64,000 nt of DNA from Chitinophagales bacterium. Its GTDB lineage: Bacteria; Bacteroidota; Bacteroidia; Chitinophagales; LD1. Both the position numbers and the translations under genes were made by a program. How positions within the stretch are numbered: position 1 is the first letter of the stretch; every line of letters starts with the position of its first letter. Below are positions 4,629 through 63,982 of the stretch, piece after piece. A model generated the notes under the pieces. The model did no database searches. It saw nothing but the letters and a program-made list of their open reading frames with translations, and was not told where the DNA came from. The stretch spans positions 4,891 to 68,890 of the forward strand of contig JAXLUJ010000017.1 of NCBI GenBank assembly GCA_046329575.1. Direction: 5' to 3'.

Positions 4629-4790
4629 CCGTGGCAGTGATGGGAAGGGTGGCCGGGAACCGGCCAGTGTGGCGGCGGAGGAACGGAGCCGCCACACCGA
4701 AGCGGTAGCGGAGCCCTGTACAGCACGGGCCCCGGCAACGGTGGGGCTTTGAGCTTTGCGAAAAGCCCCACCGGAAGCCGGGGTGCCACC
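4629..4790 (+). repeat. Dispersed structured GC-rich repeat (REP/MITE-like), copy 1
   Basis: Terminal stem GTGGCA...TGCCAC; hairpins TGGCCGG-GAA-CCGGCCA and GTGTGGCGGC/GCCGCCACAC; core CACCGAAGCGGTAGCGGAGCC shared with other copies. Confidence 0.75.
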
Positions 4791-4854
4791 CTTATGAAAC
4801 CATATTGTGGATTACTTTCTGGAAAAATAATTTTAAAATCATGTGGATAAGTTT

Positions 4855-4862
4855 TATATTTG
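4855..4862 (+). promoter_or_regulatory. Putative -7 promoter box (TATATTTG) for the infA-rplQ operon
   Basis: Exact TAnnTTTG about 30 nt upstream of the infA ATG. Confidence 0.65.
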
Positions 4863-4893
4863 CAGTCCTTTTGAAAAAAGGGGTATCAAATTC

Positions 4894-5112
4894 ATGGCAA
4901 AACAAGATCTGATTGAGCAGGACGGCACCATCGTAGAAGCGTTGAGCAACGCCATGTTCCGCGTGAAGTTAGAGAATGCGCATGAGATCATTTGTCATAT
5001 TTCGGGCAAGATGCGAATGAACTATATTAAGATACTTCCGGGCGACCGGGTGAAGGTGGAGATGAGCCCTTATGATTTGAACAAAGGCAGAATTACATTC
5101 CGCTATAAATAA
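4894..5112 (+). CDS. infA: Translation initiation factor IF-1
   Basis: [11 protein letters not shown]...[28 protein letters not shown]; 72 aa from ATG 4894. Confidence 0.98.
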
Positions 5113-5120
5113 ACATAAAG

Positions 5121-5237
5121 ATGAAAGTTAGAGCATCAGTTAAGAAAAGAAGCGCCGACTGCAAAATTGTTCGCAGAAAGGGCGTGGTGTATGTTATTAA
5201 TAAGAAGAACCCAAAGTACAAACAACGTCAGGGTTAA
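5121..5237 (+). CDS. rpmJ: 50S ribosomal protein L36 (not in ORF track)
   Basis: Translated by hand: [38 protein letters not shown]; lies between infA and rpsM. Confidence 0.97.
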
Positions 5238-5266
5238 TTTCAAACTGTTAAAACCAAAGAATATAA

Positions 5267-5644
5267 ATGGCAAGGATTTCAGGGGTTGATCTACCTAAAA
5301 ACAAGCAAGGCGCTATCGGACTTACCTACATCTACGGTATCGGCCGCACTACCGCAAAGAAAATTCTGGCTTCAGCCGGAATCGAATTCGAAACGAAAGT
5401 GAAGGACTGGACCGATGAGCAGGTGAACGGTATCCTGAACTACATCGCTACCCATTTGAAAGTGGAGGGTGAATTGCGTGGTGAAGTTCAGTCGAACATC
5501 AAGCGTTTGCAGGACATTGGCTCGTACCGTGGTATCCGCCACCGTAAAGGCTTGCCGGTTCGCGGTCAGCGTACCATCACTAACGCCCGTACCCGTAAAG
5601 GTAAGCGTAAGACGGTTGCTAATAAGAAAATGGTGACCAAATAA
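5267..5644 (+). CDS. rpsM: 30S ribosomal protein S13
   Basis: [33 protein letters not shown]. Confidence 0.98.
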
Positions 5645-5670
5645 TAATTAAAGCATAGTATCTCTATAAA

Positions 5671-6084
5671 ATGGCAAAGCAACAACAATCGGCTGGCAAC
5701 AATGCCAAGGCTAAAGCTAAAAAGCGCGTAGTAAAAGTAGGCGCAGAAGGAAAAGTATTCCTCAACGCTACCTTCAATAATATCATCGTTACCTTTACCA
5801 ACCTGGATGGCCAAACCATCAGCTGGTCGAGCGCCGGTAAAGTAGGGTTCCGTGGTTCGAAGAAAAACACGCCTTATGCAGCTCAGTTGGCTTCTTCAGA
5901 AGCCGCCAAAGTGGCTCACGAGGCCGGTTTGCGCAAAGTGGAAGTTTTCGTGAAAGGCCCGGGTGCCGGTCGTGAATCAGCTATCCGCGCTATCTTTACT
6001 TCCGGAATCGAAGTAACGGTAATCAACGATACTACCCCAATTCCTCACAACGGTTGCCGCCCGCCGAAAACACGTCGCGTGTAG
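5671..6084 (+). CDS. rpsK: 30S ribosomal protein S11
   Basis: [36 protein letters not shown]. Confidence 0.98.
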
Positions 6085-6123
6085 TCATTTTTAAATTATA
6101 CTATAAATCGATCTTAAGAAGTT

Positions 6124-6729
6124 ATGGCAAGATATATTGGACCTACAACTAAAATAGCCCGCAAATTCGGCGAGGCCATTTACGGTGCTGATAAATATTT
6201 CGACAAGCGCAATTACGCTCCGGGCCAACATGGTCTGTCGAAAAAGCGGAAACAGCCTTCAGAATATGCGATTCAGCTGGCTGAAAAACAAAAAGCAAAA
6301 TATACTTACGGTTTATTGGAGCGCCAATTCCGCAATCTGTTCGAGAAAGCCGCACGCCGTAAAGGTGTTACCGGTGAAAACCTCTTGAAATTATTGGAAG
6401 CCCGGTTAGACAATGCCGTTTTCCGCATGGGTTTTGCCAAAAGCCGCGCTCAGGCGCGTCAGTTGGTAGGTCACAAACACGTTACCGTTAATGGTGAAGT
6501 GGTGAACGTTCCGTCGTTCTCCCTGCGCCCGGGCGATAAAGTGGCCATCCGCGAACGCTCTAAAAACCTGGATGTGGTAGCTACTTCTATCGGAGGCCGC
6601 GGACGTAAGTTTGGATGGCTGGCAATTGACGATAAGGCCGTTGAAGGTACTTTCGTTGATTTCCCTGAACGCGACCAAATTCCTGAAAACATCAACGAGC
6701 AGTTGATCGTGGAATTGTACTCGAAATAA
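6124..6729 (+). CDS. rpsD: 30S ribosomal protein S4
   Basis: [31 protein letters not shown]. Confidence 0.98.
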
Positions 6730-6763
6730 TCTTTTGTATCAAATTAATCAACTCAATAAAGCT

Positions 6764-7753: not shown

Positions 7754-7780
7754 TTAAAGAAACCGATCAAATAACCAGAG

Positions 7781-8278: not shown

Positions 8279-8298
8279 GCAACAGTTAGAATAAACGA

Positions 8299-8327
8299 TA
8301 AAGGCTACCATATTGGTAGCCTTTTTT
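8299..8327 (+). terminator. Intrinsic terminator of the infA-rplQ operon
   Basis: AAAGGCTACCA-TAT-TGGTAGCCTTT plus T-run. Confidence 0.88.
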
Positions 8328-8390
8328 GTTTTTATGGCGTTCCCCCTCACACCGCCGGGAACGGCACTAATTTTCCAAACTTGAGGGAAT

Positions 8391-8520
8391 GGCGGCGTTC
8401 GGGGTCGCGTGCTTTCGTGCTTCGCTAGCGCTACGGTGTTTGGTGCATTTCGTTTCACTACATGCCCAAACACAGCTCCCTACGGTCGCTCACTATCGCC
8501 CGCTAACGCCTGCGCCCGGG
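8391..8520 (-). repeat. Dispersed structured repeat, copy 2
   Basis: Minus strand contains GTGAAACG and CACCGTAGCGCTAGCGAAGCACGAAAGCACGCG, and ends CGCCGCC. Confidence 0.7.
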
Positions 8521-8604
8521 TTATGAAAAACCGCCTTAAGTTTTAAAGTTAGGATACGTATTGGAATACGTATGGTAATACGGCAAAATGCCATTCAGAA
8601 GGGA

Positions 8605-9978: not shown

Positions 9979-10055
9979 AAGATCACCGGTTTGAACCGTA
10001 GTGCAATTTTACGCTTTCGGCAGGAAATTTTGGTAATGTTTTCAACACAGGGCAG

Positions 10056-10377
10056 GATGCAAGGAGAGAGCTGTGAGTTTCGAGCGGAGAGTTACGAGCT
10101 GAGAGTTGCGTGAGATTCAAGACGCAAGACGCAAGATGCAAGACGCAAGATGCAAGACGAAAGACGCAAGATGCAAGGAGAGAGCTATGAGTTACGAGCT
10201 ATGAGTTACGAGCTGTGAGTTACGTGAGATTCAAGACACAAGACACAAGACACAAGACGCAAGATGCAAGGAGAGAGCTATGAGTTACGAGCTGTGAGTT
10301 ACGTGAGATTCAAGACGCAAGACGCAAGATGCAAGACGCAAGATGCAAGATGCAAGACGCAGGACACAAGACGCAAG
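10056..10377. repeat. Higher-order heptamer tandem repeat: 3 super-units of (GAGCTRT/GAGTTAC)n-GTGAGATT-(CAAGAYR)n
   Basis: Directly visible 7-bp periodicity with alternating blocks. Confidence 0.92.
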
Positions 10378-10496
10378 TGGCGAAGTCCTATTTTTTGGTA
10401 GAATGATGTGGAGGCGTGAAGTGGAAAGCCGGGGGAGTGTGGCTAACCGCGGCAGCGATAGCAGGTACTATCATTAAAACAAGTAAAATTTAAAGT

Positions 10497-11639
10497 TTAT
10501 TTTAGCACTAACCGAGAGGCGTTGCTTGCCGATAACTGACGCAATTGACGACCTTCTGTAGCCTCCTTAGGGAGGCTACCTTTTTTTAGAGCGCCGATGG
10601 CGCTCAACCGAGAGGCAATTGCCGCCTCCTCCTCAGCAATTAATGGAATGTTCCGGAATGCCTGATCATTTTTATACAAGGCATAGATGATAACCAGTAA
10701 TTTCTTTTGTACGGCTACATAACTTTTCATTTTTTCATGATGCCGCTCGTACGTTCTCATAAACAGTTGAATAAATGGAGTTAACCGGTATCGTACTACG
10801 TTGAAAGCTGGCATATACAATGCTCTTCGGATCCGACTGTTTCCCCGCTTGGATATCTTTGTTTTCCCCACTCTTTTACCGGAACTATTCTCCACCACAT
10901 CATAACCACTATAACTTACTAGCTGGCGACTGTTATGAAATAAATCGAAGCCATTGGTTTCTGCTATAACTACAGCTACGGTGAGCATCCCTAGTCCTTT
11001 GATCGCGGCAATGCGTTCTACCTTTTCAAATACTTCCGCATTGGACATTAGCTGCTTTTTTATCAGTTCATCCACTTGCGCCACTTGCTTGTCGATATGA
11101 GCCAATGTAGCCTTCAACTGCTTTACTACGCTGTGGATAACGTACATCGCTGCTTCTAACGAAAGTAACTGATTGGATAATTCTGTGCGAATCTCCTGAA
11201 GGCGTTGATGTTGGCGGGTTAAAGTGCGTAAGTGAAAGAAGAACGGACTCATTGGCGTCCATTCCGGCAATGCCTGCTCACAAATCATTTGCGCCAGCCC
11301 CTGAGCATCTGATTTATCTGTTTTGGTTTTAATGCCGATTGCTTTTATGTAATCCTTGGCTCGATTAGCCAGAATTACAGATACCCGATATTTTTTCTGT
11401 GAAAAGAACAGCGCACAATTTTCATAGTACACCCCTGTAGCTTCCATCCCTATAGTGAGCCCTACATCCTTTTGTTTGTGATGTTTTGAAATCCAGCTTT
11501 CAAGGAACTGAAATCCGGCTAATGTGTTATTAAATTTTGTACTTGCCACCACTTTAACCCGTTGTGTGGCATCAATAGCGCTCATGCAGGCACGGCACTC
11601 TTTTGACCCAATGTCAATACCAACAGCATACTTCAACAT
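10497..11639 (-). CDS. IS110-family DEDD recombinase/transposase
   Basis: GIDIG, MEATG, KTDKSDA (DEDD RuvC-like); C-terminal IKGLG, NSSGK, GNSRIRRALY; ORF uninterrupted. Confidence 0.95.
   Translation of the reverse strand: MLKYAVGIDIGSKECRACMSAIDATQRVKVVASTKFNNTLAGFQFLESWISKHHKQKDVGLTIGMEATGVYYENCALFFSQKKYRVSVILANRAKDYIKAIGIKTKTDKSDAQGLAQMICEQALPEWTPMSPFFFHLRTLTRQHQRLQEIRTELSNQLLSLEAAMYVIHSVVKQLKATLAHIDKQVAQVDELIKKQLMSNAEVFEKVERIAAIKGLGMLTVAVVIAETNGFDLFHNSRQLVSYSGYDVVENSSGKRVGKTKISKRGNSRIRRALYMPAFNVVRYRLTPFIQLFMRTYERHHEKMKSYVAVQKKLLVIIYALYKNDQAFRNIPLIAEEEAAIASRLSAIGALKKGSLPKEATEGRQLRQLSASNASRLVLK
10558..10587 (+). terminator. Terminator-like hairpin antisense to the IS110 transposase 3' end
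   Basis: GTAGCCTCC-TTAG-GGAGGCTAC-C-TTTTTTT. Confidence 0.6.
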
Positions 11640-11689
11640 TTTGATGTTTTTTAAATGAACAAAAAGCCGCAGAAAACTCCCCTTTCATC

Positions 11690-11897
11690 TTCCTCACTCA
11701 TAGAATAGTTCGTATAGGCCAAAAACGCCTATCGATTAGGTACTATCGGGAATCCAAAAGAGAAAACAGGTGCAGATTAACCTGCCATAGAGCGTCAATG
11801 CGCGTGCGGAAAGCTCAAGTTGCTGCACCCGTTTTTCTACTCACACTAAGATAAAGAGATACTTCTAATGCGATTCAAAGCTCTTTTTTATCTATTG
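11690..11897 (-). ncRNA. Putative bridge/seek RNA of the IS110 element
   Basis: About 260-nt non-coding end; stem 11761-11775/11823-11838 encloses a 9-nt match to the target flank (11806-11814); 10-nt match to the element end (11738-11747) next to hairpin 11714-11732; -7 box TATCTTTG at 11902-11909. Boundaries are estimates. Confidence 0.72.
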
Positions 11898-11909
11898 CCT
11901 GCAAAGATA

Positions 11910-12128
11910 TGAGCGGAAAGCCCGGAAGGCCGCAGCAAAATAATTACGAATGAAAAATTACGAATTACGAAGCCTGGAAACGGCGATAACCAAATCCGGC
12001 TACTGTATAGAAAGGAGGCACACTTAATTCGTAATTTGAATTCGTAATTCGCCCAGAACGAAGACGCAGCAAAGCTTTTATGGCCACCCGCGGCCTGAGG
12101 ACTTGCAGCGGATAGCGCGGTTGCCGCC
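11910..12128 (+). repeat. Dispersed structured repeat, copy 3 (interrupted by IS110; 5' part at 10445-10460)
   Basis: GAGCGGAAAGCCCGGAAGGCCGCAGC...inverted AATTACG heptamers...GCGGCCTGAGGACTTGCAGCGGATAGCGCGGTTGCCGCC; ends nearly identical to 63759-63982. Confidence 0.9.
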
Positions 12129-12145
12129 ATAAAAATTGCCAAAAA

Positions 12146-13465
12146 TCAGAGTATTCCGGGAATCATTTTGTACGGCACATTCCGGCAATATGCTTCCCAG
12201 GCGGGGCCGTATTTATTGCGACATTTCATATCGTCGCGGAAGGCGCGGTGCACCAATAAGATAGTAAGGAAAACAACGTAGAAGAATGGCGCAAAAAATG
12301 CGAATCCGGTGGCACAGCTCCAGAAAAATGCGGAAAGCAATTCGGGGATATAATGAAAATGACGGCTTACACCCCAGAAACCGGAAGCGAGGAGTAAATT
12401 CTTTTTCTTTTTGCCGTCTTCAGTAGTGTATTCGGCTTCGATTAATACGGGAGATTTACCCCAAATGGTAGTGTTTCCATTGGTGCTGCGCACGATCTGC
12501 CGCTGATAATCGGCCCAATAGTTCATCCAAATGGCCACCAAACCGAGTGTAAAGATGACAGCGGCGGCCACAGCGCTTAATCCAACAGGGTGATGCACCA
12601 TGAACATTACCGGAGAAGTATAAATAGCGGGAACCCACACCAGGCAGCCCCAGCAGATGTAGTAACCGGCGCGATCAACCTGAATATCCATACTTTTCAT
12701 ATAGCCTTCTTCCCAGATGAAAAATTTTAGGAGATAGATCCAGATCAATGCGGCGGAAATGATAATGCTCCAATCCGCAGCGCCATAAATTTCTTTTTGT
12801 GCAAAAGCGAAGGAAACCACGGCTAAACTCCAGCCGATCATACCAAAGCGGCAATTCGTGAATTGCTTTACATCCCATCCCCATATTCGTGGAAACAGTT
12901 CGGTGCCCCAATAATAATCGAAAACAAAATTTCCGGTGCTGGAATTATCGGAAGACGATGGCGCGAAGCGGCCTTTGAAGTAGAGCAGCAAACAGAATAT
13001 CAAGGCTGTAAAATTGAGAGCGCCCAAAATATCGCCGAAGTGCGTGAAGATGATGCCCGGGCTGAACCATTTCAGGCCTAATGAACAACCAAAGTACAGC
13101 GCAAAAGTGAGCAGATAAGCGGCCAGACCGTTATCGGTATACACCGGTACATTTCCTTTTGGTGTAATCGTACCTTCGTATTTGCGGCCGGGCAGCAAAC
13201 GCATGAACAGCAGTTGCAGTGCGGCAAAGCTTCCTATCATCTTCCAGGCGGTTAAGGATCCGAAAAAGCGCGACAGCCAAACCTCAGAAAGAACCGTGAG
13301 AAATCCTTTTGATGTGAGTTCATTAAGCAGGGCCGTAAGACTACCATCAAGTTCCACATTGGTATGCCAGAACAGCATGGCGAAGGGCGGCGTTACCAGC
13401 ATTAACGACAGCGGAACAAACGTTCGGGTAAAGAAGTTTTCGGGGGTAGAAGCGAAACCTGACAT
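12146..13465 (-). CDS. 7-dehydrocholesterol (sterol delta-7) reductase-like, ERG4/ERG24 family
   Basis: TPKGNVPVY, DYYWGTELFPR, DVKQFTNCRFGM, DRAGYYICWGCLVWVP, LLASGFWGVSRHFHY, HRAFRDDMKCRNKYG; start likely MSGFAS at 13465. Confidence 0.9.
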   Translation of the reverse strand: MSGFASTPENFFTRTFVPLSLMLVTPPFAMLFWHTNVELDGSLTALLNELTSKGFLTVLSEVWLSRFFGSLTAWKMIGSFAALQLLFMRLLPGRKYEGTITPKGNVPVYTDNGLAAYLLTFALYFGCSLGLKWFSPGIIFTHFGDILGALNFTALIFCLLLYFKGRFAPSSSDNSSTGNFVFDYYWGTELFPRIWGWDVKQFTNCRFGMIGWSLAVVSFAFAQKEIYGAADWSIIISAALIWIYLLKFFIWEEGYMKSMDIQVDRAGYYICWGCLVWVPAIYTSPVMFMVHHPVGLSAVAAAVIFTLGLVAIWMNYWADYQRQIVRSTNGNTTIWGKSPVLIEAEYTTEDGKKKKNLLLASGFWGVSRHFHYIPELLSAFFWSCATGFAFFAPFFYVVFLTILLVHRAFRDDMKCRNKYGPAWEAYCRNVPYKMIPGIL

Positions 13466-13520
13466 GTAACCGTATTTGTTGCGAGTATAAACTAAATGAA
13501 CAGGATTTAATGTTTGAAAA

Positions 13521-14930
13521 TCAGCATTCAGGCAAACTGATAGGTACCTGACCGGCCAGTCCGCCATCGGCGGTTTCTTTGTATTTAGAATTCATATCGA
13601 GCGCGGTTTCCCACATGGTTTTAATAACGGCATCCAGCGATACTTTAGCCATGGCCGCATCGCCCTGAAGGGCGAGTTGGGAGGCTGTAATTGCCTTAAT
13701 AGCGCCCATAGTATTGCGTTCAATGCATGGGATTTGCACCAAACCGCCGATGGGGTCGCAGGTCATACCCAAATGATGTTCCATAGCAATTTCGGCAGCT
13801 TGCATTACTTGATTGGGGTCGCCGCCGGCGCATTCGGTGAGCGCACCTGCAGCCATTGCGCTGGAAACGCCGATTTCGGCCTGGCAACCACCCATAGCGG
13901 CGGAAATGGTGGCGCCGCGTTTAAAGAGCGCACCAATTTCTGATGCCGTAGCCATGAACCTGACTACATCAACGGGTTTGCCACCGGCAAAAAGTTGCTG
14001 ATAGAGCAAGGCAGCGGGAATCACACCGGCCGCGCCATTAGTGGGCGCGGTAACTACACGGCCAAATGCGGCATTTTCTTCGTTTACTGCCAGTGCGAAG
14101 CAACTCACCCAATTCAATACATCGTGGAAGGTAGAGGAGGTGCGAATTACATTCAGCCATTCTTCCCGGTTAGTATAAGTTTTTCCACGAAGTAACTTTT
14201 GGTTCATAGCCGCTGCCCGGCGCGCCACGTGAAGGCCACCGGGTAGCGTGCCGGAAGCATGACAGCCGCGGTAGATACAATCGAGCATGGTTTCCCAGAT
14301 TTGCTCAATTCCGCTCAGGGTCTGGGTTTCAGGGCGCCAGGCTTTTTCGTTTTCCAGAACCAGTTCGGAAATACTGATGCCCGCGCCCATGCAGTTTTGG
14401 AGCAACGTATCGGCATCATAAACTTCGTAACGAAGTGGAACGGCATGTTTGGAAGCGCCTTCTTCGCCTTCTTTCACTACAAAACCGCCGCCTATGCTGT
14501 AAAACGTTTCTTCATGAATATGATCGGCAAAAAATGCTTTAAAAGTTACTGCATTTGGATGATAGGGAAGTGATTGTTGTTTTAAGAACAGCAGGTCTTT
14601 TTCGTAAGAAAAGGGAATACGGTGGGTTCCGGCCAAAAAAATCTGATTGTTGTTCTTGATATCGTCGATAAATGCGGTAAGCCGGGTAGTATCGAAGGTT
14701 ACGGGGTCCTGACCAGAAAGCCCCATCAGAATAGCGATGTCTGTTCCGTGGCCTTTGCCGGTTTTTGCCAGTGAGCCAAACAACTGAACTTCCACTCGAA
14801 TAATGCCGCCAAGGTTAGCGGTTTCGCGCAGGAACCGTTCGGCGGCGCGCCAAGGGCCCAGGGTGTGAGAACTGCTGGGGCCAACACCAATTTTAAAAAT
14901 ATCGAATATGGAAAGAGGTTCGTGCTGCAT
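13521..14930 (-). CDS. sdaA: L-serine ammonia-lyase (Fe-S type)
   Basis: [54 protein letters not shown]. Confidence 0.96.
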
Positions 14931-18938: not shown

Positions 18939-19835
18939 ATGTTATTACGTCCGCCAGTTCTGCAAAAAGGGGATACTGTTTTATTCGTATCCACAGCACG
19001 AAAAATTTCTGAAGTTGAAATTGAACCCGCCAGGAAATTGATGGAAAGCTGGGGGCTGAAAGTAAAGCTGGGCTTAACCATTGGCCTGGAAGACCGTCAG
19101 TTTGCCGGTACCGATGCGGCGCGTTTAGCTGATTTTCAAAGCGGACTGGACAACGAAAATGTAAGGGCGATTATTTGTAGCCGTGGCGGATATGGTACGG
19201 TTAGAATGATGGACCAACTGGATTGGACTAAATTTATGTTGCAGCCCAAATGGATTTGCGGTTTCAGTGATGTGACTTATCTGCACGTTCACCTCAATCA
19301 AACCTTGGGCATTCAAACGCTTCATGCACCTATGCCGGCAACATTTGAAAGAACTACCACTGCAGCGCTGGAAAGCATGCGGTTGGCGTTATTTGAAGGG
19401 AAAACGGAGTTGCATTCGCCGGTTCACGCGCTGAACCGAATAGGAGTAGCAACCGGTACGCTTATTGGAGGGAATTTATCGATACTTTATAGCATCACCG
19501 GAACAAAATCAGGATTTAATACCGAGAATAAGATTTTAGTGTTGGAAGATTTGGATGAGTATTTGTATCACCTTGACCGCATGATGCTGAATTTAAAGCG
19601 ATCGGGCAAACTGGAACGTTTGGCGGGACTTATGGTAGGCGGATTGAGTGATATGCGCGATAATGCCGTACCATTTGGCAGAACAGCCGAGGAAATAGTG
19701 CTGGAAGCGGTAGCGGAATACAATTATCCGGTTGTTTTCGGAATGCCATTCGGTCATATTGCGGACAACCACGCCCTTATTTTGGGGCGGAAAATGACTT
19801 TACAAGTGGGAGCGACCGGAGGAGCGCTGGTGTAG
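18939..19835 (+). CDS. LD-carboxypeptidase (peptidase S66)
   Basis: RGGYG, GFSDVT, GGNL, LEDLDE, FGH. Confidence 0.92.
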   Translation: MLLRPPVLQKGDTVLFVSTARKISEVEIEPARKLMESWGLKVKLGLTIGLEDRQFAGTDAARLADFQSGLDNENVRAIICSRGGYGTVRMMDQLDWTKFMLQPKWICGFSDVTYLHVHLNQTLGIQTLHAPMPATFERTTTAALESMRLALFEGKTELHSPVHALNRIGVATGTLIGGNLSILYSITGTKSGFNTENKILVLEDLDEYLYHLDRMMLNLKRSGKLERLAGLMVGGLSDMRDNAVPFGRTAEEIVLEAVAEYNYPVVFGMPFGHIADNHALILGRKMTLQVGATGGALV

Positions 19836-19836
19836 A

Positions 19837-19899
19837 GGTGTGGTGGGTGTAGTAGGTGTGGTGGGTGTAGTAAGTGTGGTAAGTGTGGTAAGTGTGGTG
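19837..19899. repeat. Degenerate 9-bp tandem repeat (RGTGTRGTR) x about 7
   Basis: Directly visible, 1 nt after the LD-carboxypeptidase stop. Confidence 0.9.
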
Positions 19900-19987
19900 A
19901 GAGTGCTTACGTCTTGTGTCTTTTGTCTTTTTTTCTCGCTCCAGTTAAAGGTTGAGAGGGGTGTCGGTGTGTTCGAAGTTAGTTTGA

Positions 19988-22591: not shown

Positions 22592-22637
22592 GGAACGAGT
22601 TTTGAGTTTTTTACGCACAGATGGCCAAAAGGTTACA

Positions 22638-22737
22638 GGAGAGAGGAGAGATGAGAGAGGAGAGATGAAAGATGAGAGAGGAGAGATGAAAGTTGAGAGA
22701 TGAGAGATGAGAGATGAGAGATGAGAGATGAAAGATG
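22638..22737. repeat. Degenerate heptamer tandem repeat (GATGAGA/GAGGAGA)n
   Basis: Directly visible purine-rich 7-bp periodicity downstream of the plsC stop. Confidence 0.9.
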
Positions 22738-22745
22738 GGGAGCCG

Positions 22746-23483
22746 TTAGTGGTTTTGGATTTGTTGGATCATGAGTTGACGGACTTTTTCTGATAGGGCG
22801 TCGGTATCGGCATCGGTGAGGCCGGTAGTGGGGATGGCATCGAGGAGTTGCACCCGAATGGTGCCCGGATAAAAGCGATAGGTTCCCGATGGCTGTAGTT
22901 GGCGGGTGCCTAGCAGAACAAAAGGTTGAAGGGGAACCTGAGCGGCAATGGCAATCTTAAACGCACCTTTATGAAAGGGCAGTAATGGCTGTTCCGATTT
23001 ATTTCGGGTACCTTCGGGGAAAATGAGGAAGGAGAGTCCTTTATGGAGCAGGTGAATCATTTTTTGGGTGCTTTGCTGACGGCTTTGAGCGTTTTTCCGA
23101 TCTACAAAAACCGCTGCTATACTGAACAGAAACCCCAACACCGGCATATAAGCGAACTCCTTTTTTGCCAGCGATTTATAATAATGCTGAAGAAAATATC
23201 CGGCAATAGGAAGATCAAGCATGTTGCAGTGGTTGCCGGTGAAAACATAAACTTGAGAAGGATTTACTTTTTCCCAGCCTTCAATCACGATCTTATAACC
23301 GCAGATTTTGAACCAAAGGCTGCACAGGGCGCGATTGGCTTTGTAGGCGTTAAGGGTGCGTTGTTTATCGTTTTGGAAATACACGGCCGCGTAGGCAAAC
23401 AGCAGCAGGATGAGCACCAAACTAAAGGTGACGATGCACCAGACACTGTAGAAGAAAGTAAAAACACTACGCAGCAATCGCAT
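22746..23483 (-). CDS. 1-acyl-sn-glycerol-3-phosphate acyltransferase (PlsC family), paralog 1
   Basis: NHCNMLD, FVDR, FPEGTR, FHKGAF; start likely MRLLRS at 23483. Confidence 0.92.
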   Translation of the reverse strand: MRLLRSVFTFFYSVWCIVTFSLVLILLLFAYAAVYFQNDKQRTLNAYKANRALCSLWFKICGYKIVIEGWEKVNPSQVYVFTGNHCNMLDLPIAGYFLQHYYKSLAKKEFAYMPVLGFLFSIAAVFVDRKNAQSRQQSTQKMIHLLHKGLSFLIFPEGTRNKSEQPLLPFHKGAFKIAIAAQVPLQPFVLLGTRQLQPSGTYRFYPGTIRVQLLDAIPTTGLTDADTDALSEKVRQLMIQQIQNH

Positions 23484-23625
23484 GGTTGAATTTAAGGAAA
23501 ACCTGAAAAAAGAGAAAAGGAATTGGGTAAAAGGCACAAGCCGGGCGTTTTGCGCCAGCGGGCGACAGGGCTGCGCCGGAGGCTGTCTTGTCCTAAAATA
23601 GGTTTACACAAAATGTAAACTATAA

Positions 23626-24051
23626 ATGGACACAAAACAAGAACAAGATCCGAAACGACCTGCAGGCTCTTATTATTATTCACCAACATTTAAACAGCAA
23701 GTTATAGATGAATATCTTCAGACAGGTCAGCCCAAAGAGCACATTGAGCGCAAATATGGCCTGAGCGGCCATGGCATAATTTGCAAGTGGCTACGAAAAG
23801 CAGGTTATGCGGATCCTTATGCACCAAAAGTATTACGTAATTTTGCGGCACTAAACGATTTTCCTTTGTCTCAATCAAAAGATCCGCAAAAGCAGTCGCA
23901 GGCGTCTCTCAGTATATTGGAGGCTGAAATTGCTCGTTTAAAGAAACGTTTGGCAGACGAACAACTTCGTTCGGAGCTCTATGAGCGTATGATTACGCTG
24001 GCCGAAAAGGAATATAAGATTGCCATCCGAAAAAACTCCAACACCAAGTAA
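23626..24051 (+). CDS. IS3 OrfA (HTH DNA-binding)
   Basis: YSPTFKQQVIDEY...KYGL...KWLRK, coiled coil; ends with A6C slippery site at 24030-24036. Confidence 0.88.
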   Translation: MDTKQEQDPKRPAGSYYYSPTFKQQVIDEYLQTGQPKEHIERKYGLSGHGIICKWLRKAGYADPYAPKVLRNFAALNDFPLSQSKDPQKQSQASLSILEAEIARLKKRLADEQLRSELYERMITLAEKEYKIAIRKNSNTK

Positions 24052-24967
24052 TCCGTGAAACTAAAGACAGCCGACCCCAAACAAGTCTGGTTCGATGCTG
24101 TTGTTTACTTGGTATAACCAGACAGGCTTATTATCAACAACAGTGGCGACAGCAAACCAACTCTTTTGAAGAGGAACTGGTATTACAGCAAGTCCATCAA
24201 ATTCGGCGGCTTCAACCTGCCATTGGTGGCCGTAAACTGCTGTTGCTTTTGCAGCCATTTTTATTGGAACATCAAATCAAAATGGGACGCGATGCGCTAT
24301 TTGATCTATTGGCAGCTCACAAATTATTAATTAGAAAAAAACGTAGGAAAATGACTACCACACAATCTAACCACTGGTTCCGCAAATACCCCAATATCAT
24401 ACGCGGCTTTACGCCTACATCTTCTAATCAGTTATGGGTATCGGATATTACCTATTACAAAACCGCCTTGGGATTTAGATATATCAGCTTCATAACCGAT
24501 GCCTACAGCAGGAAAATCGTTGGGCATCATGTAGCGGATAGTCTTGAGGCAATACATACAATTAAAGCTTTGGAAATGGCTATTTCTATGAGCTATGGGC
24601 CGTTGTCCGGACTAATCCATCATTCTGACCGCGGCATACAGTATTGTTCGGCTGATTACGTAAAACTATTAGAAGCTAACCACATCAAAATCAGTATGAC
24701 TGAAAACGGGGACCCATTGAAAACGCTATCGCTGAACGTGTAAATGGGATTTTGAAAGAAGAATTTTTAAACCATTACCAGCCGACAGATGGGCAATTAA
24801 TGGAAATCCTAACACGTTCTGTTTTGATTTATAATGAAGTTCGACCCCATATGAGCTGCAACATGCTGACCCCTGAAGACGTTCATCGAAATAACCTTCC
24901 AATTCATAGGACATGGAAGAATTATTACCGGCCAAAAACTACATTTGTAAACTCCAATCAGGATTAA
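24030..24967 (+). pseudogene. IS3 OrfB DDE transposase with an extra 1-nt frameshift near 24719
   Basis: -1 frame from the slippery site reads KKLQHQ...LGITRQAYY...WVSDITY...HHSDRGIQY...ENGDPL; the expected ENAIAERVNGILKEE continues in another frame. Confidence 0.82.
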
Positions 24968-25032
24968 GCCTGAATTGTAAACCTATAACAGGACTTATTT
25001 TTTAACCTGTAAACTTTTTTTAGGACGATACA

Positions 25033-25130
25033 GGCGCAGGTGCGTAACGAAGTGGAGCACGGGAGGCGAAGCCGTACCCCGAAAGCACGCGGTGCCGCAC
25101 GGCCGAGGAACGAGGCCCGCGGCAGGCGCC
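25033..25130 (+). repeat. Dispersed structured repeat, copy 4 (interrupted by IS3; 5' part about 23539-23583)
   Basis: Rejoined site gives hairpin CTGCGCC-GGA-GGCGCAG then GTGCG...GCAC and GAAAGCACGCGGTG...GAGGAACGAG...CCGCGGCAG, matching rc of 36099-36259. Confidence 0.85.
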
Positions 25131-25136
25131 AAGAAA

Positions 25137-25227
25137 GATGAAAGATGAAAGATGAAAGATGAAAGATGAAAGATGAAAGATGAAAGATGAAAGATGAAAG
25201 ATGAAAGATGAAAGATGAAAGATGAGA
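25137..25227. repeat. Heptamer tandem repeat (GATGAAA) x12 perfect plus one variant
   Basis: Directly visible; ends 1 nt from the plsC paralog 2 stop. Confidence 0.97.
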
Positions 25228-25228
25228 G

Positions 25229-25987
25229 TTAGGGAGTGGATTTGAAAAGAACATCTTCTTTGGCCAGTACGTTGCCAATAAGTTGGCGGGTTCGTTCTTT
25301 GAGAGCGTGGGTATCATCGGCCGTCATGCCTTTGGTATCGATGGGATCGAGGAAGCGAACCGTAACGGTGCCCGGGAAAACAAAATTAGAATCAACGGGT
25401 TGGAGGTGGCGGATGTTGAGCAATACAAAGGGTGCAATATAGGCTTGTGCTTCAATGGCCACTTTAAAAGCCCCATCATAAAATTCTTTCACCGGTTCGG
25501 GGGTTCGGTTACGAGTTCCTTCAGGAAAAATGAGCAGCGAAAGTCCGCCTTTCATCCATTCGATCATTTTTTCGGTACTGCGTTTACGGCTTTCGGGGTC
25601 TTTGCGGTCAACGGGCAAGGAGGTCATGGAAAGCAATTGGCCAAAAACCGGCATTTTGAGCAATTCTTTTTTCACGAGCGGCTTGTAATAATGTTTGATT
25701 ACGGAAGCGGTAATAGGAATATCGAGCATATTGGAATGATTGCAAACGAAGGCATAGACCTTATCGTTCGAAATTTTTTCACGGCCTTCCACTTTCACCC
25801 AAATGCCTGAAAGGGGGCTCCAGATGCGGAGCAGGAAAAAATCGTTCAAAATGTAGATGATTCGCATGCGGGTGCGATCGTTGCGAATGAGCAGCAGTGG
25901 CACATACAGCAGCAGCATGGCTACCAGGCAGAGGAAAAATAACAGCCCCACATAAAAGCTATAAATGCCGCTTAATATTTTTTTCAT
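25229..25987 (-). CDS. 1-acyl-sn-glycerol-3-phosphate acyltransferase (PlsC family), paralog 2
   Basis: NHSNMLD, PVDR, FPEGTR, FYDGAF. Confidence 0.92.
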   Translation of the reverse strand: MKKILSGIYSFYVGLLFFLCLVAMLLLYVPLLLIRNDRTRMRIIYILNDFFLLRIWSPLSGIWVKVEGREKISNDKVYAFVCNHSNMLDIPITASVIKHYYKPLVKKELLKMPVFGQLLSMTSLPVDRKDPESRKRSTEKMIEWMKGGLSLLIFPEGTRNRTPEPVKEFYDGAFKVAIEAQAYIAPFVLLNIRHLQPVDSNFVFPGTVTVRFLDPIDTKGMTADDTHALKERTRQLIGNVLAKEDVLFKSTP

Positions 25988-36098: not shown

Positions 36099-36259
36099 GA
36101 TCTTTTTTGGCAGCTGCCGCGGCCCTGCTCGTTCCTCGCAGTTCCGCGTCACCGCGTGCTTTCAGGCTACGCTAACGCTCCGGTGCTACGGCTTCGCCTT
36201 CGCACGCCCGCCAAAGGCGGGCCCTTGCCGCCCGCTGCTGCATGCGCCCGGCCGCAGCC
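36099..36259 (-). repeat. Dispersed structured repeat, copy 5
   Basis: Hairpin GCCCGCC-AAA-GGCGGGC (36206-36222); minus-strand core GTAGCACCGGAGCGTTAGCGTAGCC and GAAAGCACGCGGTG; lies between convergent genes. Confidence 0.85.
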
Positions 36260-47564: not shown

Positions 47565-47574
47565 AAACAGTGAT

Positions 47575-47638
47575 AAGTTATTAGTTGAAAGTTATAAGTA
47601 GTAAACAGTTAGCTCTTATAACTTTCAACTGATAACTT
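47575..47638. terminator. 24-bp inverted repeat between convergent genes, built from degenerate heptamers
   Basis: AAGTTATTAGTTGAAAGTTATAAG / CTTATAACTTTCAACTGATAACTT, one mismatch. Confidence 0.7.
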
Positions 47639-47642
47639 CTAA

Positions 47643-48899
47643 CTATTTCATTAGAATTTGAATGGTATTTCGTGAGGACTGTCGCAACAGTATGTCCTTA
47701 CCTGCTGTGAGTTCTGCAACAATTTCGGGAGTATAATGCCGAATGGTGAGTAAGGTCAGTTGATCATTACTAGATATTCCAAAATCTTTCGACAGAATGG
47801 TTCGGATGCGTTCAATTTTTTCGTGTTTGAAATCTACCACTACCGAATAGCTGATGGCTGCATTCTGCATCAAATTCACCCGCAAATTATTCTCGCTGAA
47901 AACAGCAAAAATGGTACTGAGATGTTCTTCCGCTATGAAAGAAAAATCGCGTACTGAAAACGACAGCAACATCTGTTCGTTTTTCACAATGATTACCGGC
48001 GGAAGCGGGCCGTTGTTGGATTCGGCCGATATGACACTACCTTTTTTTTCGGGATGAACGAACGACCGTACTTCTAATGGAATGTTTTTATTCTGCAGCG
48101 GTTTAATCGTTTTCGGGTGAATGACGTTGGCGCCGTAGTAGGTCATTTCTATCGCCTCGTGATAGCTGATTTCGCTTAAAAAGACGGCCTTTGGAAACGC
48201 CTTCGGGTCGGCATTCATAATGCCTTCTACATCCTTCCAAACCGTCATTCGCGAAGCATTCAAACTAAATGACAGAATAGCCGCAGTATAATCAGAACCC
48301 TCACGCCCTAAAGTGGTGGTAAATCCTTCCTCACTGCTGCCAATAAAACCCTGAGTAATTACAAAGCCGGTTTTTAGCAATTCAGGAATTACCCGCTCCA
48401 CAGCATCAGGCGTACGTTCCCAGTTGATGCGTGCTTCGGTGTAAGCGTGGTCGGTAGCAATCACTTTTCGCGCATCCAACAGGTGGTTGTGGAGGCCGGT
48501 AGCATTACAATAGGCGCTCACAATGGCTGTAGAAAGAAATTCACCGGCAGAAACTACCTGATCATAAATGAATTGATAATGGGTAGAAGAGGTGTTGGTA
48601 AGAAAATCATTCGCCTTCGAAATAGGCGCATTCACTACCATCTCTATATCAGCCTGCGATGGGAACAACTCCTTCATGATGGCTTGATGCTTCATCCGTA
48701 TGGCTTCCAGCTTTTCCTTCCAAACACTATTGCCGGCTACAAATGCATTTACAACACCTTCCAGTTCATTGGTAGTTTTGCCCATGGCCGATATCACTAC
48801 CACTTTGTTTTCGGTGCCTTGTTGCTTTAAAATAGCAGCTACATTTTTGATAGCAGCCGCATCTTTTACCGAAGCTCCGCCAAATTTATACACTTCCAT
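47643..48899 (-). CDS. lysC: Aspartate kinase
   Basis: [38 protein letters not shown]; start MEVYKF at 48899. Confidence 0.94.
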   Translation of the reverse strand: MEVYKFGGASVKDAAAIKNVAAILKQQGTENKVVVISAMGKTTNELEGVVNAFVAGNSVWKEKLEAIRMKHQAIMKELFPSQADIEMVVNAPISKANDFLTNTSSTHYQFIYDQVVSAGEFLSTAIVSAYCNATGLHNHLLDARKVIATDHAYTEARINWERTPDAVERVIPELLKTGFVITQGFIGSSEEGFTTTLGREGSDYTAAILSFSLNASRMTVWKDVEGIMNADPKAFPKAVFLSEISYHEAIEMTYYGANVIHPKTIKPLQNKNIPLEVRSFVHPEKKGSVISAESNNGPLPPVIIVKNEQMLLSFSVRDFSFIAEEHLSTIFAVFSENNLRVNLMQNAAISYSVVVDFKHEKIERIRTILSKDFGISSNDQLTLLTIRHYTPEIVAELTAGKDILLRQSSRNTIQILMK

Positions 48900-55554: not shown

Positions 55555-55589
55555 TTTTGACTTCTTCCTGAAAAAGCAGAGAAGTGCTT

Positions 55590-55645
55590 CACCAACCACA
55601 CCCACCACACCCACCACACCCACCACACCCACCACACCTCCCACA
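55590..55645. repeat. 9-bp tandem repeat (CACCCACCA) x about 6
   Basis: Directly visible; abuts the stop codon at 55646. Confidence 0.93.
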
Positions 55646-56872
55646 CTATTTAAACACCACCTTCCGCACATTCTTGAATTCCGGAATCGGGTCTTTTTTA
55701 TCGCGGCGGTCAAACCCCGGCAACAAAATGCTTTCCATGTCCTTTTTTACAAACTGAATCACATTGCTCAGGCTATCAGAGGTAAATCGGCTAAACGGTT
55801 CATGCAGTTTTTCGCCATTCCGTTTGTTGAAGAAAAGTATAGAATCAGGCACAATCTCGAAGGTATAATAAGCATTCAAAGGCTTTCCGGTTTCGGCAGT
55901 TTCAGGAACATCCAATGGCATCGCTTTGATATCGGTGGTGCAACCTAAAGTGTCCTGATTGGGAACCAGCCAAGGCTCCAGTTTCGGACCAATATGGATG
56001 TAGCGCTTAAAAACATATCGGTAATCGGTAAAGTCCATTTCGCTGTTCCACCAAATGTCTTCATTTCGCTCAGTTTCCGGTTTTTTTAACTGCACAAAGC
56101 GGTCAACCTGATCATAGGCCATCGCGGCTTGTGGCTTGGTAGGCAAGGGTTCCAGCGCCGCTAATGCCTTTTGAATTTCTTCAGTGGCAATTATCCGATA
56201 AGGCTTTTCATCCAAATCTTTCAAGATGCGCAGCGCAATCCTCTTGCCAATAACCGTTCCCAAAAAATTAGAGTAAGTATCCTCTGGCGTAAATGCCGAA
56301 ACGCGCTCTGTAGTTACAAAATTCGGCGCCGTATAGTACCAACTTGCAGTCTCGTGCCACTCTAATCGTTCAAATGCAATTTTTTGCGCCATGGAGGTAA
56401 GGTCGTTTAACGACAACTCCTTCAAATTCCTGAAGCGCAGATGTAGCGCACCGCTTTCGGGTTTCAAATCAAAATCACGTTCAAAGGCTACGATTTTGAA
56501 GGCCAGATAAACCGTCCAATCGGCTGCTGCGCGCATATGCGAAACATCAATAAAACCTCCCCGGCAGGTATAAAGTGCCCCATTATGTTCTTTGTACGAC
56601 GGACGGCCATAACTGTGCACGCCTAAATGTTGAGGATCGGCAAAACTGGTAATAGGCATAAGCGGAAACGACAATAAGTACAATCCGTATCCGAATTGCG
56701 AAAAAGTGCGCCTCTTTTTCTTTTCAGGATAGCCGAATTGCCGGATAAAGTTCCGGGCAATATGGTTCACTGCCTTGGTGCGGTTTTGCGCATTCCAGGT
56801 GTTGGAGAAGGAGGGAAGCGACACAATAACAAGTAAAGCCACAATCCATAAACGACGCACCACTAACCACAT
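55646..56872 (-). CDS. DUF4056-like exported protein
   Basis: LGVHSY, LYTCRGGFIDVSHMR, WHE, SAFTPEDTYSNFLG; start uncertain (56872 or 56914). Confidence 0.7.
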   Translation of the reverse strand: MWLVVRRLWIVALLVIVSLPSFSNTWNAQNRTKAVNHIARNFIRQFGYPEKKKRRTFSQFGYGLYLLSFPLMPITSFADPQHLGVHSYGRPSYKEHNGALYTCRGGFIDVSHMRAAADWTVYLAFKIVAFERDFDLKPESGALHLRFRNLKELSLNDLTSMAQKIAFERLEWHETASWYYTAPNFVTTERVSAFTPEDTYSNFLGTVIGKRIALRILKDLDEKPYRIIATEEIQKALAALEPLPTKPQAAMAYDQVDRFVQLKKPETERNEDIWWNSEMDFTDYRYVFKRYIHIGPKLEPWLVPNQDTLGCTTDIKAMPLDVPETAETGKPLNAYYTFEIVPDSILFFNKRNGEKLHEPFSRFTSDSLSNVIQFVKKDMESILLPGFDRRDKKDPIPEFKNVRKVVFK

Positions 56873-56961: not shown

Positions 56962-57068
56962 GGCGGCTATCCGGCTTTGCAGGGCTTCGCTATCGCTACG
57001 GTGCTGCGTTTCACTCCGCACCCGCGCCTGTGGCGCGGCCCTTCCAATCCGGGCCGCGCGCCTGGCCG
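56962..57068 (-). repeat. Dispersed structured repeat, copy 6
   Basis: Minus strand GGATTGGAAGGG-CCGCGCC-ACA-GGCGCGG-GTGCGGAGTGAAACGCAGCACCGTAGCGATAGCGAAGCC...AGCCGCC. Confidence 0.88.
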
Positions 57069-57312: not shown

Positions 57313-57406
57313 AAAAAAAAGGCCCTGTGCGCTAACACAGGGCCGGAGCTGCAGGGCCTGGCGGGCCAACTGCAAGCCCTTATCTGAACATTTTAAAACC
57401 AAACTA
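57313..57406 (-). ncRNA. Candidate stand-alone small RNA (about 95 nt)
   Basis: -7 box TATCTTCG (57412-57419), internal stem GGGCTTGCAG/CTGCAGCTCC, terminator GGCCCTGTG-TTAGCG-CACAGGGCC-T8; no convincing ORF. Confidence 0.5.
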
Positions 57407-57541
57407 CGCCGCGAAGATACAAAATGATGTGATGATTAGTAAAAGTACTAATTCTCACAGGTAATGGCAGAAACCAAATCCGTGCCAAAACGCGTTTGCC
57501 GAAAAGCGGATAGAGTAGGCGTTAGTTAATCAGTTTATTTT

Positions 57542-58006: not shown

Positions 58007-58012
58007 AAAAGA

Positions 58013-58639: not shown

Positions 58640-58676
58640 TAGCCTAAGGGCGATGCGTGCGCCGGCTTTTATTACT

Positions 58677-58776
58677 AACCGCGGCAAGGATTGGAGTGGT
58701 GCCGCCTTCGGCGGCAGTGCGAAGTGAAACGTAGCACCGTAGCGATAGCGGAGCCACGAAAAGCCTGGTTGCCGCC
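58677..58776 (+). repeat. Dispersed structured repeat, copy 7
   Basis: AACCGCGGCAAGGATTGGAGTGG-TGCCGCC-TTC-GGCGGCA-GTGCGAAGTGAAACGTAGCACCGTAGCGATAGCGGAGCC...GGTTGCCGCC. Confidence 0.9.
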
Positions 58777-61900: not shown

Positions 61901-63295
61901 ACCATTACTTCAACTGATGAAAACGGTGAAAAAGTAAATGTGGTGATTGGCCGTACCGGTGAGGTTCGTATTGTGAAAGAAGATAATCACGATAAAGTAT
62001 TGGTAACCCACCACATCCCTTATGGTTCACAACTATTCATCAAAGATGGCAAGCACATCAAGAAAGGTGAAGTGATTTGTAAATGGGATCCGTTCAACAA
62101 CGTGATTATTTCAGAGGTTACCGGTAAGGCGAAATTCGAGCAAGTGATTGAGAACGTAACTTACCGCGATGAGATGGACGAACAAACCGGACACCGCGAA
62201 AAAGTGATCATCGAAACCAAGGACAAAACCAAAGTTCCTGCGGTATTGATCATGACCGGAAAAGAAGGAAAATCGTTCAGCATGCCGGTAGGCGCGCATA
62301 TTGTGATTGAAGACGGTGACAGCGTGGCTCAGGGCCAAATTATCGCCAAGATTCCAAGAGCAATGGGTAAAGTGAAGGATATCACGGGCGGTCTGCCACG
62401 TGTTACTGAACTTTTTGAAGCGCGTAACCCAAGCAATCCGGCAGTAGTATCTGAAATTGATGGTGTAGTTCGCTTTGGTGGTATCAAACGCGGTAACCGC
62501 GAGATTATCATTGAATCGCGCGAGGGCGATGTTCGCAAATATCTGGTGTCGTTATCGAAACACATTCTGGTTCAGGAGCAAGATTTCGTTCGCGCCGGAA
62601 CGGCACTTTCCGATGGCGCTATCACGCCTTCCGATATCCTCAGCATCAAAGGACCATTTGCTGTTCAGGAATATCTGGTGAACGAAATTCAGGAAGTTTA
62701 CCGCCTGCAAGGCATTAAGATCAACGACAAGCACATCGAAATCATTGTTCGTCAGATGATGAGCAAAATGATTATCGAGGATCCGGGCGATACCCGCTTC
62801 CTGGAAGGCGAATCGGTGAACAAATTCGAATTGCTGGGTGTAAATGATGAGATGTTCGATAAGAAAGTAATTGATCAGGCCGATGATTCTGAAACGCTGA
62901 AAGCGGGTCAGATCGTAAATCTGCGCCGTATCCGCGAAGAGAACTCGCTGTTGCGCCGCGCCGATAAGAAGCTGATTGAATACCGCGATGCGGTACCGGC
63001 CACTGCTACGCCGCAGTTGCAAGGTATTACCCGCGCCAGCTTGTCGACCGAATCATGGATTTCGGCTGCATCGTTCCAGGAAACTACGAAAGTACTTTCT
63101 ACGGCCTCGATTGCTGCGAAACAAGATTTCCTGGAAGGTTTGAAAGAGAACGTAATTGTTGGAAAACGCATTCCTGCAGGAACCGGCCAGCGCCGTTTCG
63201 AAGAGATGTTTGTGGCCAACAAAGAAGAAGTTCAGGAAAAACAGGTTTCAAACAACAAAAAGGAAAAAGAAAGCTCGATAGAATTGATCGGGTAA
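58949..63295 (+). CDS. rpoC: RNA polymerase beta-prime subunit
   Basis: KPETINYRT, Zn finger, NADFDGD catalytic motif, [22 protein letters not shown]. Confidence 0.99.
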
Positions 63296-63314
63296 TTTTT
63301 CAATACCAAAACAG

Positions 63315-63345
63315 AAAGCCGCTTCGTAAGAAGCGGCTTTTTTTT
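63315..63345 (+). terminator. Intrinsic terminator of rpoC
   Basis: AAAGCCGCTTC-GTAA-GAAGCGGCTTT plus T-run. Confidence 0.9.
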
Positions 63346-63373
63346 CGAGTGTTTTGATCAGGTTTAGCATGAT

Positions 63374-63485
63374 GGCGGCAACCGCGTGCTCCGCTATTAC
63401 TCCTCGCGCCGTTTCCCGGCTTTTGATGTAACGCCGGTGGTGAGTAAACGGCGCTGCGGGGTAGCCGCTGCGCCCGCTGCCGCGG
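63374..63485 (-). repeat. Dispersed structured repeat, copy 8 (divergent)
   Basis: Minus strand CCGCGGCAGCGGGCGCAGCGG...CGCAGCGCCG...CGGCGCGAGGAG...CACGCGGTTGCCGCC. Confidence 0.7.
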
Positions 63486-63524
63486 GAAGCCATAACAGCC
63501 GGGCAGTTCACATCGCCCAGAAAA

Positions 63525-63640
63525 GAATTACGAATTTTAATTTTGGCCGCGGCTACAACGAAAAAATTACGAATTACGAAAGAGGATGTCGGCAATTTAA
63601 ATACAAGGGTACTTCTATTTCGTAATTCGTAATTTGAAAT
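63525..63640. repeat. Inverted AATTACG/CGTAATT heptamer blocks
   Basis: AATTACGAATTACGAAA...TTTCGTAATTCGTAATT form a long imperfect hairpin. Confidence 0.75.
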
Positions 63641-63758
63641 GGCGTTGTTGCATGAATAATTCAGACGAGCCAGCGATAGCATTGCCTCAAGAGGTGATGA
63701 AATATTTAAGAAGGCCTGTGTAGGTTGTTCAAAATGTGCAAGGCTCTATATTTTGGCA

Positions 63759-63982
63759 AACCGCGGTAGCGATAGGAGCGGAAAGCCCGCAAGGCCGCAG
63801 CGAAAAAATTACGAATAAAAAATTACGAATTACGAGCAGGATAATGATTCTTGTTTGAGGTTCAACCACCTCTTTCGTAATTCGTAATTTGAAATTCGTA
63901 ATTCGCCCGAAACGACTACACAGCAATGGTTTTAGGCTTTCCGCGGCCTGAGGACTTGCAGCGGATAGCGCGGCATCCGCCA
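63759..63982 (+). repeat. Dispersed structured repeat, copy 9 (intact homolog of the IS110-interrupted copy)
   Basis: AACCGCGGTAGCGATAGGAGCGGAAAGCCCGCAAGGCCGCAGC...AATTACG inverted blocks...CCGCGGCCTGAGGACTTGCAGCGGATAGCGCGG. Confidence 0.92.

Follow-up and report, generated by a model that had tools for sequence, protein, structure and literature searches.

The 64,000-nucleotide stretch of the Chitinophagales bacterium assembly GCA_046329575.1 that we analysed (contig JAXLUJ010000017.1, positions 4,891 to 68,890 of the forward strand; hereafter the window) carries nine copies of a dispersed, folded intergenic repeat. These are related to the Flavo-1 motif (RF01705), from which they differ by added branches or greater length, and are not members of that Rfam family. 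An earlier sequence-only reading of the window had placed the repeat at eleven coordinates, all of which carry the sequence it described, and together these make up nine elements, of which two are interrupted by insertion sequences (IS). The copies share a common shell and differ in what it encloses: subtype A has a four-way junction of short hairpins, subtype B a long hairpin which is often filled with heptamers, and subtype C a poly-T/poly-A stem. The host genome is 3.5 Mb in size with 45% GC, and is present in wastewater and sludge metagenomes. The copies and the mobile elements associated with them lie in the window as follows:

4631..4789, plus strand: subtype A1 copy with a four-way junction interior, an extra 3' hairpin and GTGGCA...TGCCAC termini.
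8391..8510, minus strand: subtype A2 copy flanked by rplQ-like and nuoF-like genes that converge on it.
10445..10464, plus strand: left-arm fragment of a subtype B copy, severed by an IS110 element.
10465..11911, minus strand: IS110 element at an AG (the CT core in the IS orientation) of the B left arm; the genome has three identical copies, all in this arm.
10497..11639, minus strand: IS110 recombinase gene, 380 aa (DEDD_Tnp_IS110, Transposase_20, NF033542).
11697..11814, minus strand: predicted bridge-RNA guides, comprising the left target guide (LTG, 11805-11814), right target guide (RTG, 11782-11788), left donor guide (LDG, 11738-11748) and right donor guide (RDG, 11697-11703).
11912..12131, plus strand: rest of the IS110-split subtype B copy, the interior of which is a hairpin made of TTACGAA-type heptamers.
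23552..23583, plus strand: 5' part of an IS3-split subtype A2 copy, broken in the loop of its first hairpin.
23584..25032, plus strand: IS3-family element with terminal inverted repeats and a 3-bp duplication, GGC (open reading frames (ORFs) 23626-24051 and 24243-24743).
25033..25130, plus strand: 3' part of the IS3-split subtype A2 copy.
36109..36241, minus strand: subtype A2 copy with a 3' side hairpin, between convergent genes.
56962..57057, minus strand: subtype A1 copy.
58681..58776, plus strand: subtype A1 copy upstream of rpoC; the five congeners examined lack it here.
63374..63483, minus strand: B-like interior within an A2-type shell, downstream of the rpoC terminator.
63641..63656, plus strand: left terminal inverted repeat of an IS5-type miniature inverted-repeat transposable element (MITE; about 281 bp when complete), which carries B copies elsewhere in the genome.
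63763..63981, plus strand: subtype B copy with a heptamer-repeat interior.

The shell is built from a GCGG-type outer stem, then stems of 3 bp and 2 bp with an A.G mismatch between them, followed by facing GNA/GNA triplets and one more stem. Identical left and right shells are common to subtypes A, B and C, which confirms the interchangeable interiors proposed in the sequence-only reading. GC-rich perfect hairpins of 7 bp with a 3-nt loop occur five times in the window and not at all in each of five base shuffles; four of the five subtype A hairpins reported earlier are intact and the fifth (CTGCGCC) belongs to the IS3-split copy, while the GTGGCA...TGCCAC termini of the first copy are paired in the predicted fold. 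Selection on structure, which had been proposed from these few copies, is supported by compensatory Watson-Crick pairing across the genome. Among A1 copies, 30 of 44 could be parsed, and pairing is kept in 206 of 210 instances at seven stem columns, with a G-T pair in just one of the 206. Six of the seven columns vary on both sides and in those six at most one in 2000 shuffles matched the observed value, although these shuffle counts overstate significance and are not probabilities, as the copies are related by descent. The 2-bp stem alone appears as TT/AA, TA/TA, TG/CA, CT/AG and CA/TG, and in the B and C copies (71 of 105 parsed) every listed combination is Watson-Crick. The shell is kept through compensatory Watson-Crick changes while closing several interchangeable interiors.

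The fold is also marked by mini-hairpins of the form GCGNAGC/GCGNNAGC, of which 174 lie on the motif strand and two on the opposite strand (shuffle mean 15), and which are found in 72 of 73 A copies. Mini-hairpins of this kind are reported to be less stable as RNA than as DNA and to bind single-stranded DNA-binding protein (SSB) poorly, and the same loops occur at the complementary-strand origins of G4, St-1 and alpha3 and at RSF1010 ssiA (PMC13037366). Predicted DNA and RNA folding energies of the copies did not discriminate between the two.

We file the window copies as relatives of Flavo-1 because they miss the cut-off of its Rfam covariance model (42 bits); an Rfam scan of the window returned DUF805b only, and no Flavo-1. 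Elsewhere in the genome, 15 of 150 scored candidates pass this cut-off and have the same arms, the window shell (3-bp stem, A.G, 2-bp stem, GNA/GNA loop and next stem) is that of the copies which pass, and profiles built on canonical copies match the arms of the window B copies. The 2010 seed alignment of Flavo-1 already includes B-like rows, one A-like row, two plasmid rows and GAGGAACG-type loops (PMC2864571). The shell and the Bacteroidota range are shared; the differences are the four-way junction of subtype A, the long heptamer hairpins of subtype B, and an outer stem that lies beyond the model. The family itself is not new, since its shell is that of Flavo-1, and the window variants are relatives which the Rfam model misses; what is added here is the branched variants, a strand rule and targeting by bridge-RNA elements.

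A genome-wide search using profiles made from the genome's own copies found 173 clusters and none in the reversed genome, and a four-subtype census gave 178 elements (78 B, 44 A1, 29 A2 and 27 canonical C). This is a lower bound, with the window copy at 63374 escaping the profiles. A stricter structure scan gave 162 matches, of which 126 are common to the set of 178, and five in the reversed control. Amongst 31 relatives the number of matches per genome ranges from 0 to at least 104, and the repeat occurs in at least 37 of 121 class-level genomes.

The repeat is not confined to chromosomes. A B-type pattern matched 34 viral loci, some of them inside microviruses, and in a set of 50,697 phage records 18 of the 19 matched rows are no longer than 7.2 kb and 10 are named microviruses. 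When 103 microvirus contigs were fetched by their capsid, 22 were found to carry the shell: 17 of the 73 in one capsid clade have it on the non-coding strand, and 5 of the 30 in a second clade have it on the coding strand. We took the packaged strand to be the T-rich strand at fourfold sites, for which a deamination rationale has been given (PMC1087484), and predicted that the element would follow it before the skew was computed. The fourfold-site T-A skew of the coding strand is -0.58 in the first group (the mean given for the 73-contig clade is about -0.55) and +0.61 in the second group, and the element lies on the T-rich strand in 22 of 22 contigs of this first set, at 47 of 47 loci in a further scan, and at no fewer than 45 of 45 loci in a third (76 full-flank loci were newly fetched, 45 of which had a capsid). 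Pooled and de-duplicated, these amount to at least 40 loci in two T-rich-coding capsid clades and at least 26 in one A-rich-coding clade. An identical 57-nt core and six pairs within two or three changes of each other span both polarity groups, always on the T-rich strand, from which it follows that modules have moved between clades and been kept to that strand. Three of the phage copies score 30–40 bits against the Flavo-1 model, and three D-type copies do not match it.

In one of these clades three interiors alternate at a single site 3' of the capsid gene. The G4 record annotates its complementary-strand origin after the capsid gene, which may be compared with this site, and the phiX174 primosome hairpin is described at the corresponding post-capsid position (PMC9865509). 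If the orientation of the element is a guide, the A-rich-coding clade (73 contigs; L046, L085, L534 and relatives), the reverse of phiX174 in its skew, may package its non-coding strand. On other viral contigs the element is on the strand opposite to the adjoining ArdC-like (seven loci) and DUF932 (three loci) genes. We note separately that a 9,169-bp viral contig (L053), part of a Mu-like prophage, carries B-type copies in both orientations, three in all.

Conjugative plasmids carry the element as well, with 83 of 72,556 plasmid records matched, all of them from Bacteroidales genera. Eight plasmids were examined, and in all six that have a visible relaxase the element is opposite to the relaxase gene. 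The relaxase is reported to be located in the lagging region of transfer (PMC11541004), and because of this its orientation would make the element strand the putative transferred strand. Two other readings were considered and dropped: an origin of transfer, as the two copies in p5482 are far from the mobilisation genes, and an attC-like site.

Considered together, these observations make it very probable that the motif folds as single-stranded DNA, in one role or another. The sequence-only reading had left a choice between a structured non-coding RNA and a single-stranded DNA element, and it is the second that is favoured; the first is weakened because copies occur in either orientation to genes, because G-T pairs are nearly absent, and because the relatives track the single strand of phages and plasmids. 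We put at about even the chance that the shared shell is a host-recognised signal of the single-strand initiation (ssi) type, which starts second-strand synthesis and was later amplified as a chromosomal repeat. In this proposal the repeats of the window would take up their fold as single-stranded DNA, and the shell would start second-strand synthesis when phage or plasmid DNA comes in, the element-bearing strand being the putative packaged strand of microviruses and transferred strand of plasmids. A host protein (candidates are primase, PriA or RNA polymerase) would bind the fold, from which the mini-hairpins may exclude SSB. In some chromosomes the element would then have been amplified to 100–200 intergenic copies, partly as the cargo of an IS5-type MITE, and the amplified copies could subsequently have become landing sites for a guide-matched IS110 and an IS3. 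The likeness to known ssi signals (the phiX174 primosome hairpin, the G4, St-1 and alpha3 primase origins, RSF1010 ssiA, and Frpo/ssi of the F plasmid) lies in the GNA mini-hairpin fold on a single strand, in its being the single strand of microviruses and conjugative plasmids, and in the post-capsid position in one clade; known signals differ from the repeat in its 100–200 chromosomal copies in some hosts.

Several observations weigh against priming. The case for it is one of strand and position, and an identical strand rule would arise without any priming from an element that inserts wherever a single strand is exposed. No sequence similarity was found between the element and the phiX174 primosome assembly site (PAS) or origin or the G4 origin regions. 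The T-rich strand is the packaged strand in three of four reference phages used for calibration (skews of +0.65 for phiX174, +0.49 for G4 and +0.38 for Chp2), with phiMH2K (-0.25) the opposite. The element is optional in microviruses, as shown by the 22 carriers in 103; one site is filled in three relatives (by B, D and a minimal form) and cleanly empty in four, and two other relatives have internal deletions. Microvirus relatives lacking it bear other GC-rich hairpin modules, which could possibly provide redundancy. Searches of viral contigs and plasmids did not recover subtype A, which is the most frequent one in the window, and the independent cases are few, being three capsid clades and about four plasmid backbones. 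Two of the eight plasmids have no relaxase in the stretch fetched, and one pMMCAT copy adjoins a second relaxase on the same strand as the element. No bias towards the lagging-strand template was found in the two chromosomes counted, with 71 copies against 66 in this genome (in which the skew is weak) and 25 of 58 clusters in another, G148; a third genome, G124, was left out with a skew that was too noisy. Finally, the typical RNA loop C-UUCG-G occurs 29 times on the opposite strand of the repeat, although this is what the CCGAAG mini-hairpin reads as on the complementary strand.

The main rival reading, in our estimation rather unlikely, is that the repeat is instead a selfish, non-autonomous element moved as folded single-stranded DNA by some HUH-type enzyme, following the logic of REPINs (doublets formed by repetitive extragenic palindromic (REP) sequences) or of IS200/IS605. 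Much of what we see is shared with REP and REPIN sequences and their REP-associated tyrosine transposases (RAYTs; PMC3116915, PMC1525189), including the intergenic, multi-copy and folded nature of the repeat, its patchy copy number among relatives, and a sequence that drifts while the structure is kept. Copies are enriched between convergent genes, where 70 of 171 are found compared with 170 of 1145 spacers (p about 2e-20; gene context is from a home-made gene caller), and filled and empty sites in the microviruses are clean, with no duplication. Unlike REPs and REPINs, the copies are mostly single and not inverted doublets, with 20 pairs closer than 2.5 kb among the 178 elements and few within 300 nt, and the repeat also occurs, at fixed single sites, in phages and plasmids. 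The absence of a replichore bias also counts against such a mechanism, as does the microvirus element itself, which is single-copy, at a fixed site and has its interiors exchanged in place; a retained function fits this better. Sites without copies were seen in congeners, including five which lack the copies around rpoC, but these genomes are too divergent to define junctions, and in contigs from four DNA runs no joint skipping a whole copy was present among the matches listed (the IS110 region was outside this test). We observed in passing that G148 has Flavo-1 matches in tandem arrays with 230–330 nt spacing (contig C1, e.g. 3069838-3070654 and 2565316-2566401).

A transposase gene flanked by the repeat would be expected of such an element, and none was found. 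The lack of a cognate mobiliser, first noted for the window, extends to the whole genome: the only Y1 transposase is flanked by its own unrelated repeats and not by the Flavo-1 repeat, searches for DUF559 and for a reverse transcriptase detected neither, both GIY-YIG matches fall within long ORFs, and the genes flanking copies include no dedicated small-gene family apart from IS transposases. The Y1 gene is RAYT-like and lies at C28:4500-5340 between its own repeated palindromes. IS110 and IS3 were rejected as mobilisers as both interrupt copies.

Part of the chromosomal amplification can be traced to a MITE. In fourteen paired units of about 281 bp, two of which have been made larger by IS110, inverted repeats bracket B copies, and the 16-bp terminal inverted repeat also ends IS5-family transposons; an apparent 9-bp duplication, judged by eye, is perfect in three units and matches at eight of nine positions in five. 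These units resemble IS5-family MITEs in size, in their terminal inverted repeats and in the apparent duplications, and differ in their Flavo-1-type cargo and in that the transposase was not found in this genome (tblastn with eight such transposases gave no match in the 30-contig assembly). The MITE accounts for only a minority of the copies. The mobile-element part of the sequence-only reading was thus incomplete, having overlooked both the MITE-borne B copies and the two transposase families that target the repeat.

The first of these families is IS110, all eight copies of which in the genome lie in the left arm of B copies. They belong to two subfamilies with proteins that are 45% identical, and these use two different AG sites. 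Around the CT core, the segments in each IS110 non-coding end match first the left and right target and then the left and right donor, and the LTG and RTG of the window element match the left arm of the repeat. Judged by sequence, with its DEDD recombinase, CT core and guides matching target and donor, the element appears to fit the bridge-RNA class. We used the guide order and layout of IS621 as a reference (PMC11208160), with which it shares the type of recombinase, the core, the LTG-RTG-LDG-RDG order and a target in a host repeat; it differs in that two subfamilies aim at two AG sites of a Flavo-1-type left arm. IS110 relatives in four other genomes (38–47% identity) have no Flavo-1 profile match in their loci. 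The second family is IS3, with seven copies, five of which have their junction in an A-type hairpin loop and two just past the 3' end of the copy. REPs are known targets of both the IS3 and IS110 families (PMC1525189; cf. IS1397 and IS621, respectively), so that this targeting is a further likeness to REPs which would suit a single-stranded DNA transposon. A degenerate IS110 at C28:25538-26912 has the left end of one subfamily and the right end of the other.

We regard as improbable the possibility that the repeat acts as a structured RNA in transcripts, whether as a 3' stabiliser, a terminator helper or an independent small RNA. Flavo-1 was defined as an RNA motif on the basis of covariation (Weinberg et al. 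2010; PMC2864571), the predicted RNA folds of the copies are stable, and 125 of 171 copies have a gene's 3' end as their closest gene boundary. However, 81 of those 125 are antisense to the gene, and between co-directional genes 31 copies are sense and 46 antisense, so that orientation on the chromosome is independent of transcription. Flavo-1 matches in F. psychrophilum are likewise reported as sense or antisense to transcribed regions, with many outside them (PMC9723704). The sequencing runs listed for the genome include none of RNA. The pairs corresponding to G-U are almost absent from the fold, and in microviruses two clades have the element sense to their genes and the third has it antisense. 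A fold that protects the DNA or stalls polymerases, in which nuclease-resistant and SSB-free mini-hairpins shield the DNA or pause polymerases without priming, seems very improbable: such mini-hairpins are described as nuclease-resistant and poor SSB binders (PMC13037366) and any single-stranded DNA role would fit the strand rule, but a single fold of 60–100 nt shields little of a 6-kb or 35-kb strand, and the conserved A.G and GNA/GNA geometry suggests a specific protein contact.

Returning to the ssi signal, we would advance only tentatively the fuller proposal that Flavo-1 is not an RNA and is instead a phylum-wide ssi signal of the Bacteroidota, a modular DNA fold which a host priming enzyme reads, which microviruses and conjugative plasmids have borrowed and swapped, which has been amplified to hundreds of copies in chromosomes and now serves bridge-RNA transposons as a programmed landing pad, and whose orientation reveals a microvirus clade that packages its non-coding strand. 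Few annotated small RNAs of the Bacteroidota are as abundant as Flavo-1, which has been without a function since 2010; none was found in the literature naming the term, as far as the available portions of those papers go, and largely open-access titles and abstracts contained nothing on point for either an ssi role of Flavo-1 or a reversed microvirus polarity. The strand rule makes the function of Flavo-1 directly testable and points away from RNA. If the proposal is true, the signal by which phages and plasmids of gut and environmental Bacteroidota convert single-stranded DNA would be named, a part for Bacteroidota vectors would become available and negative-polarity microviruses would be predicted, and there would be a natural supply of IS110 guides directed to an intergenic target with many copies.

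A number of other features were noted in the window and genome. Heptamer repeat arrays and hairpins are found at window positions 10039-10384, 22622-22771, 25109-25272, 47565-47648 and 63554-63640, and the heptamers of these arrays are also those that make up subtype B interiors and lie beside the MITE. A 9-nt CACCACACC-type unit forms arrays in both orientations at 4128-4213, 19835-19904 and 55572-55666. A gene of the ERG4/ERG24 family (sterol reductase-like) at 12146-13567 adjoins a B copy. Positions 57356-57525 hold a conserved non-coding block, the 3' end of which is the DUF805b match (57489-57521), and a second copy of the block, at C28:265279, likewise follows a similar A copy and an AT-rich spacer. 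Over-represented words in the genome also include a repeat of about 47 nt with about 45 copies, which resembles a CRISPR direct repeat.

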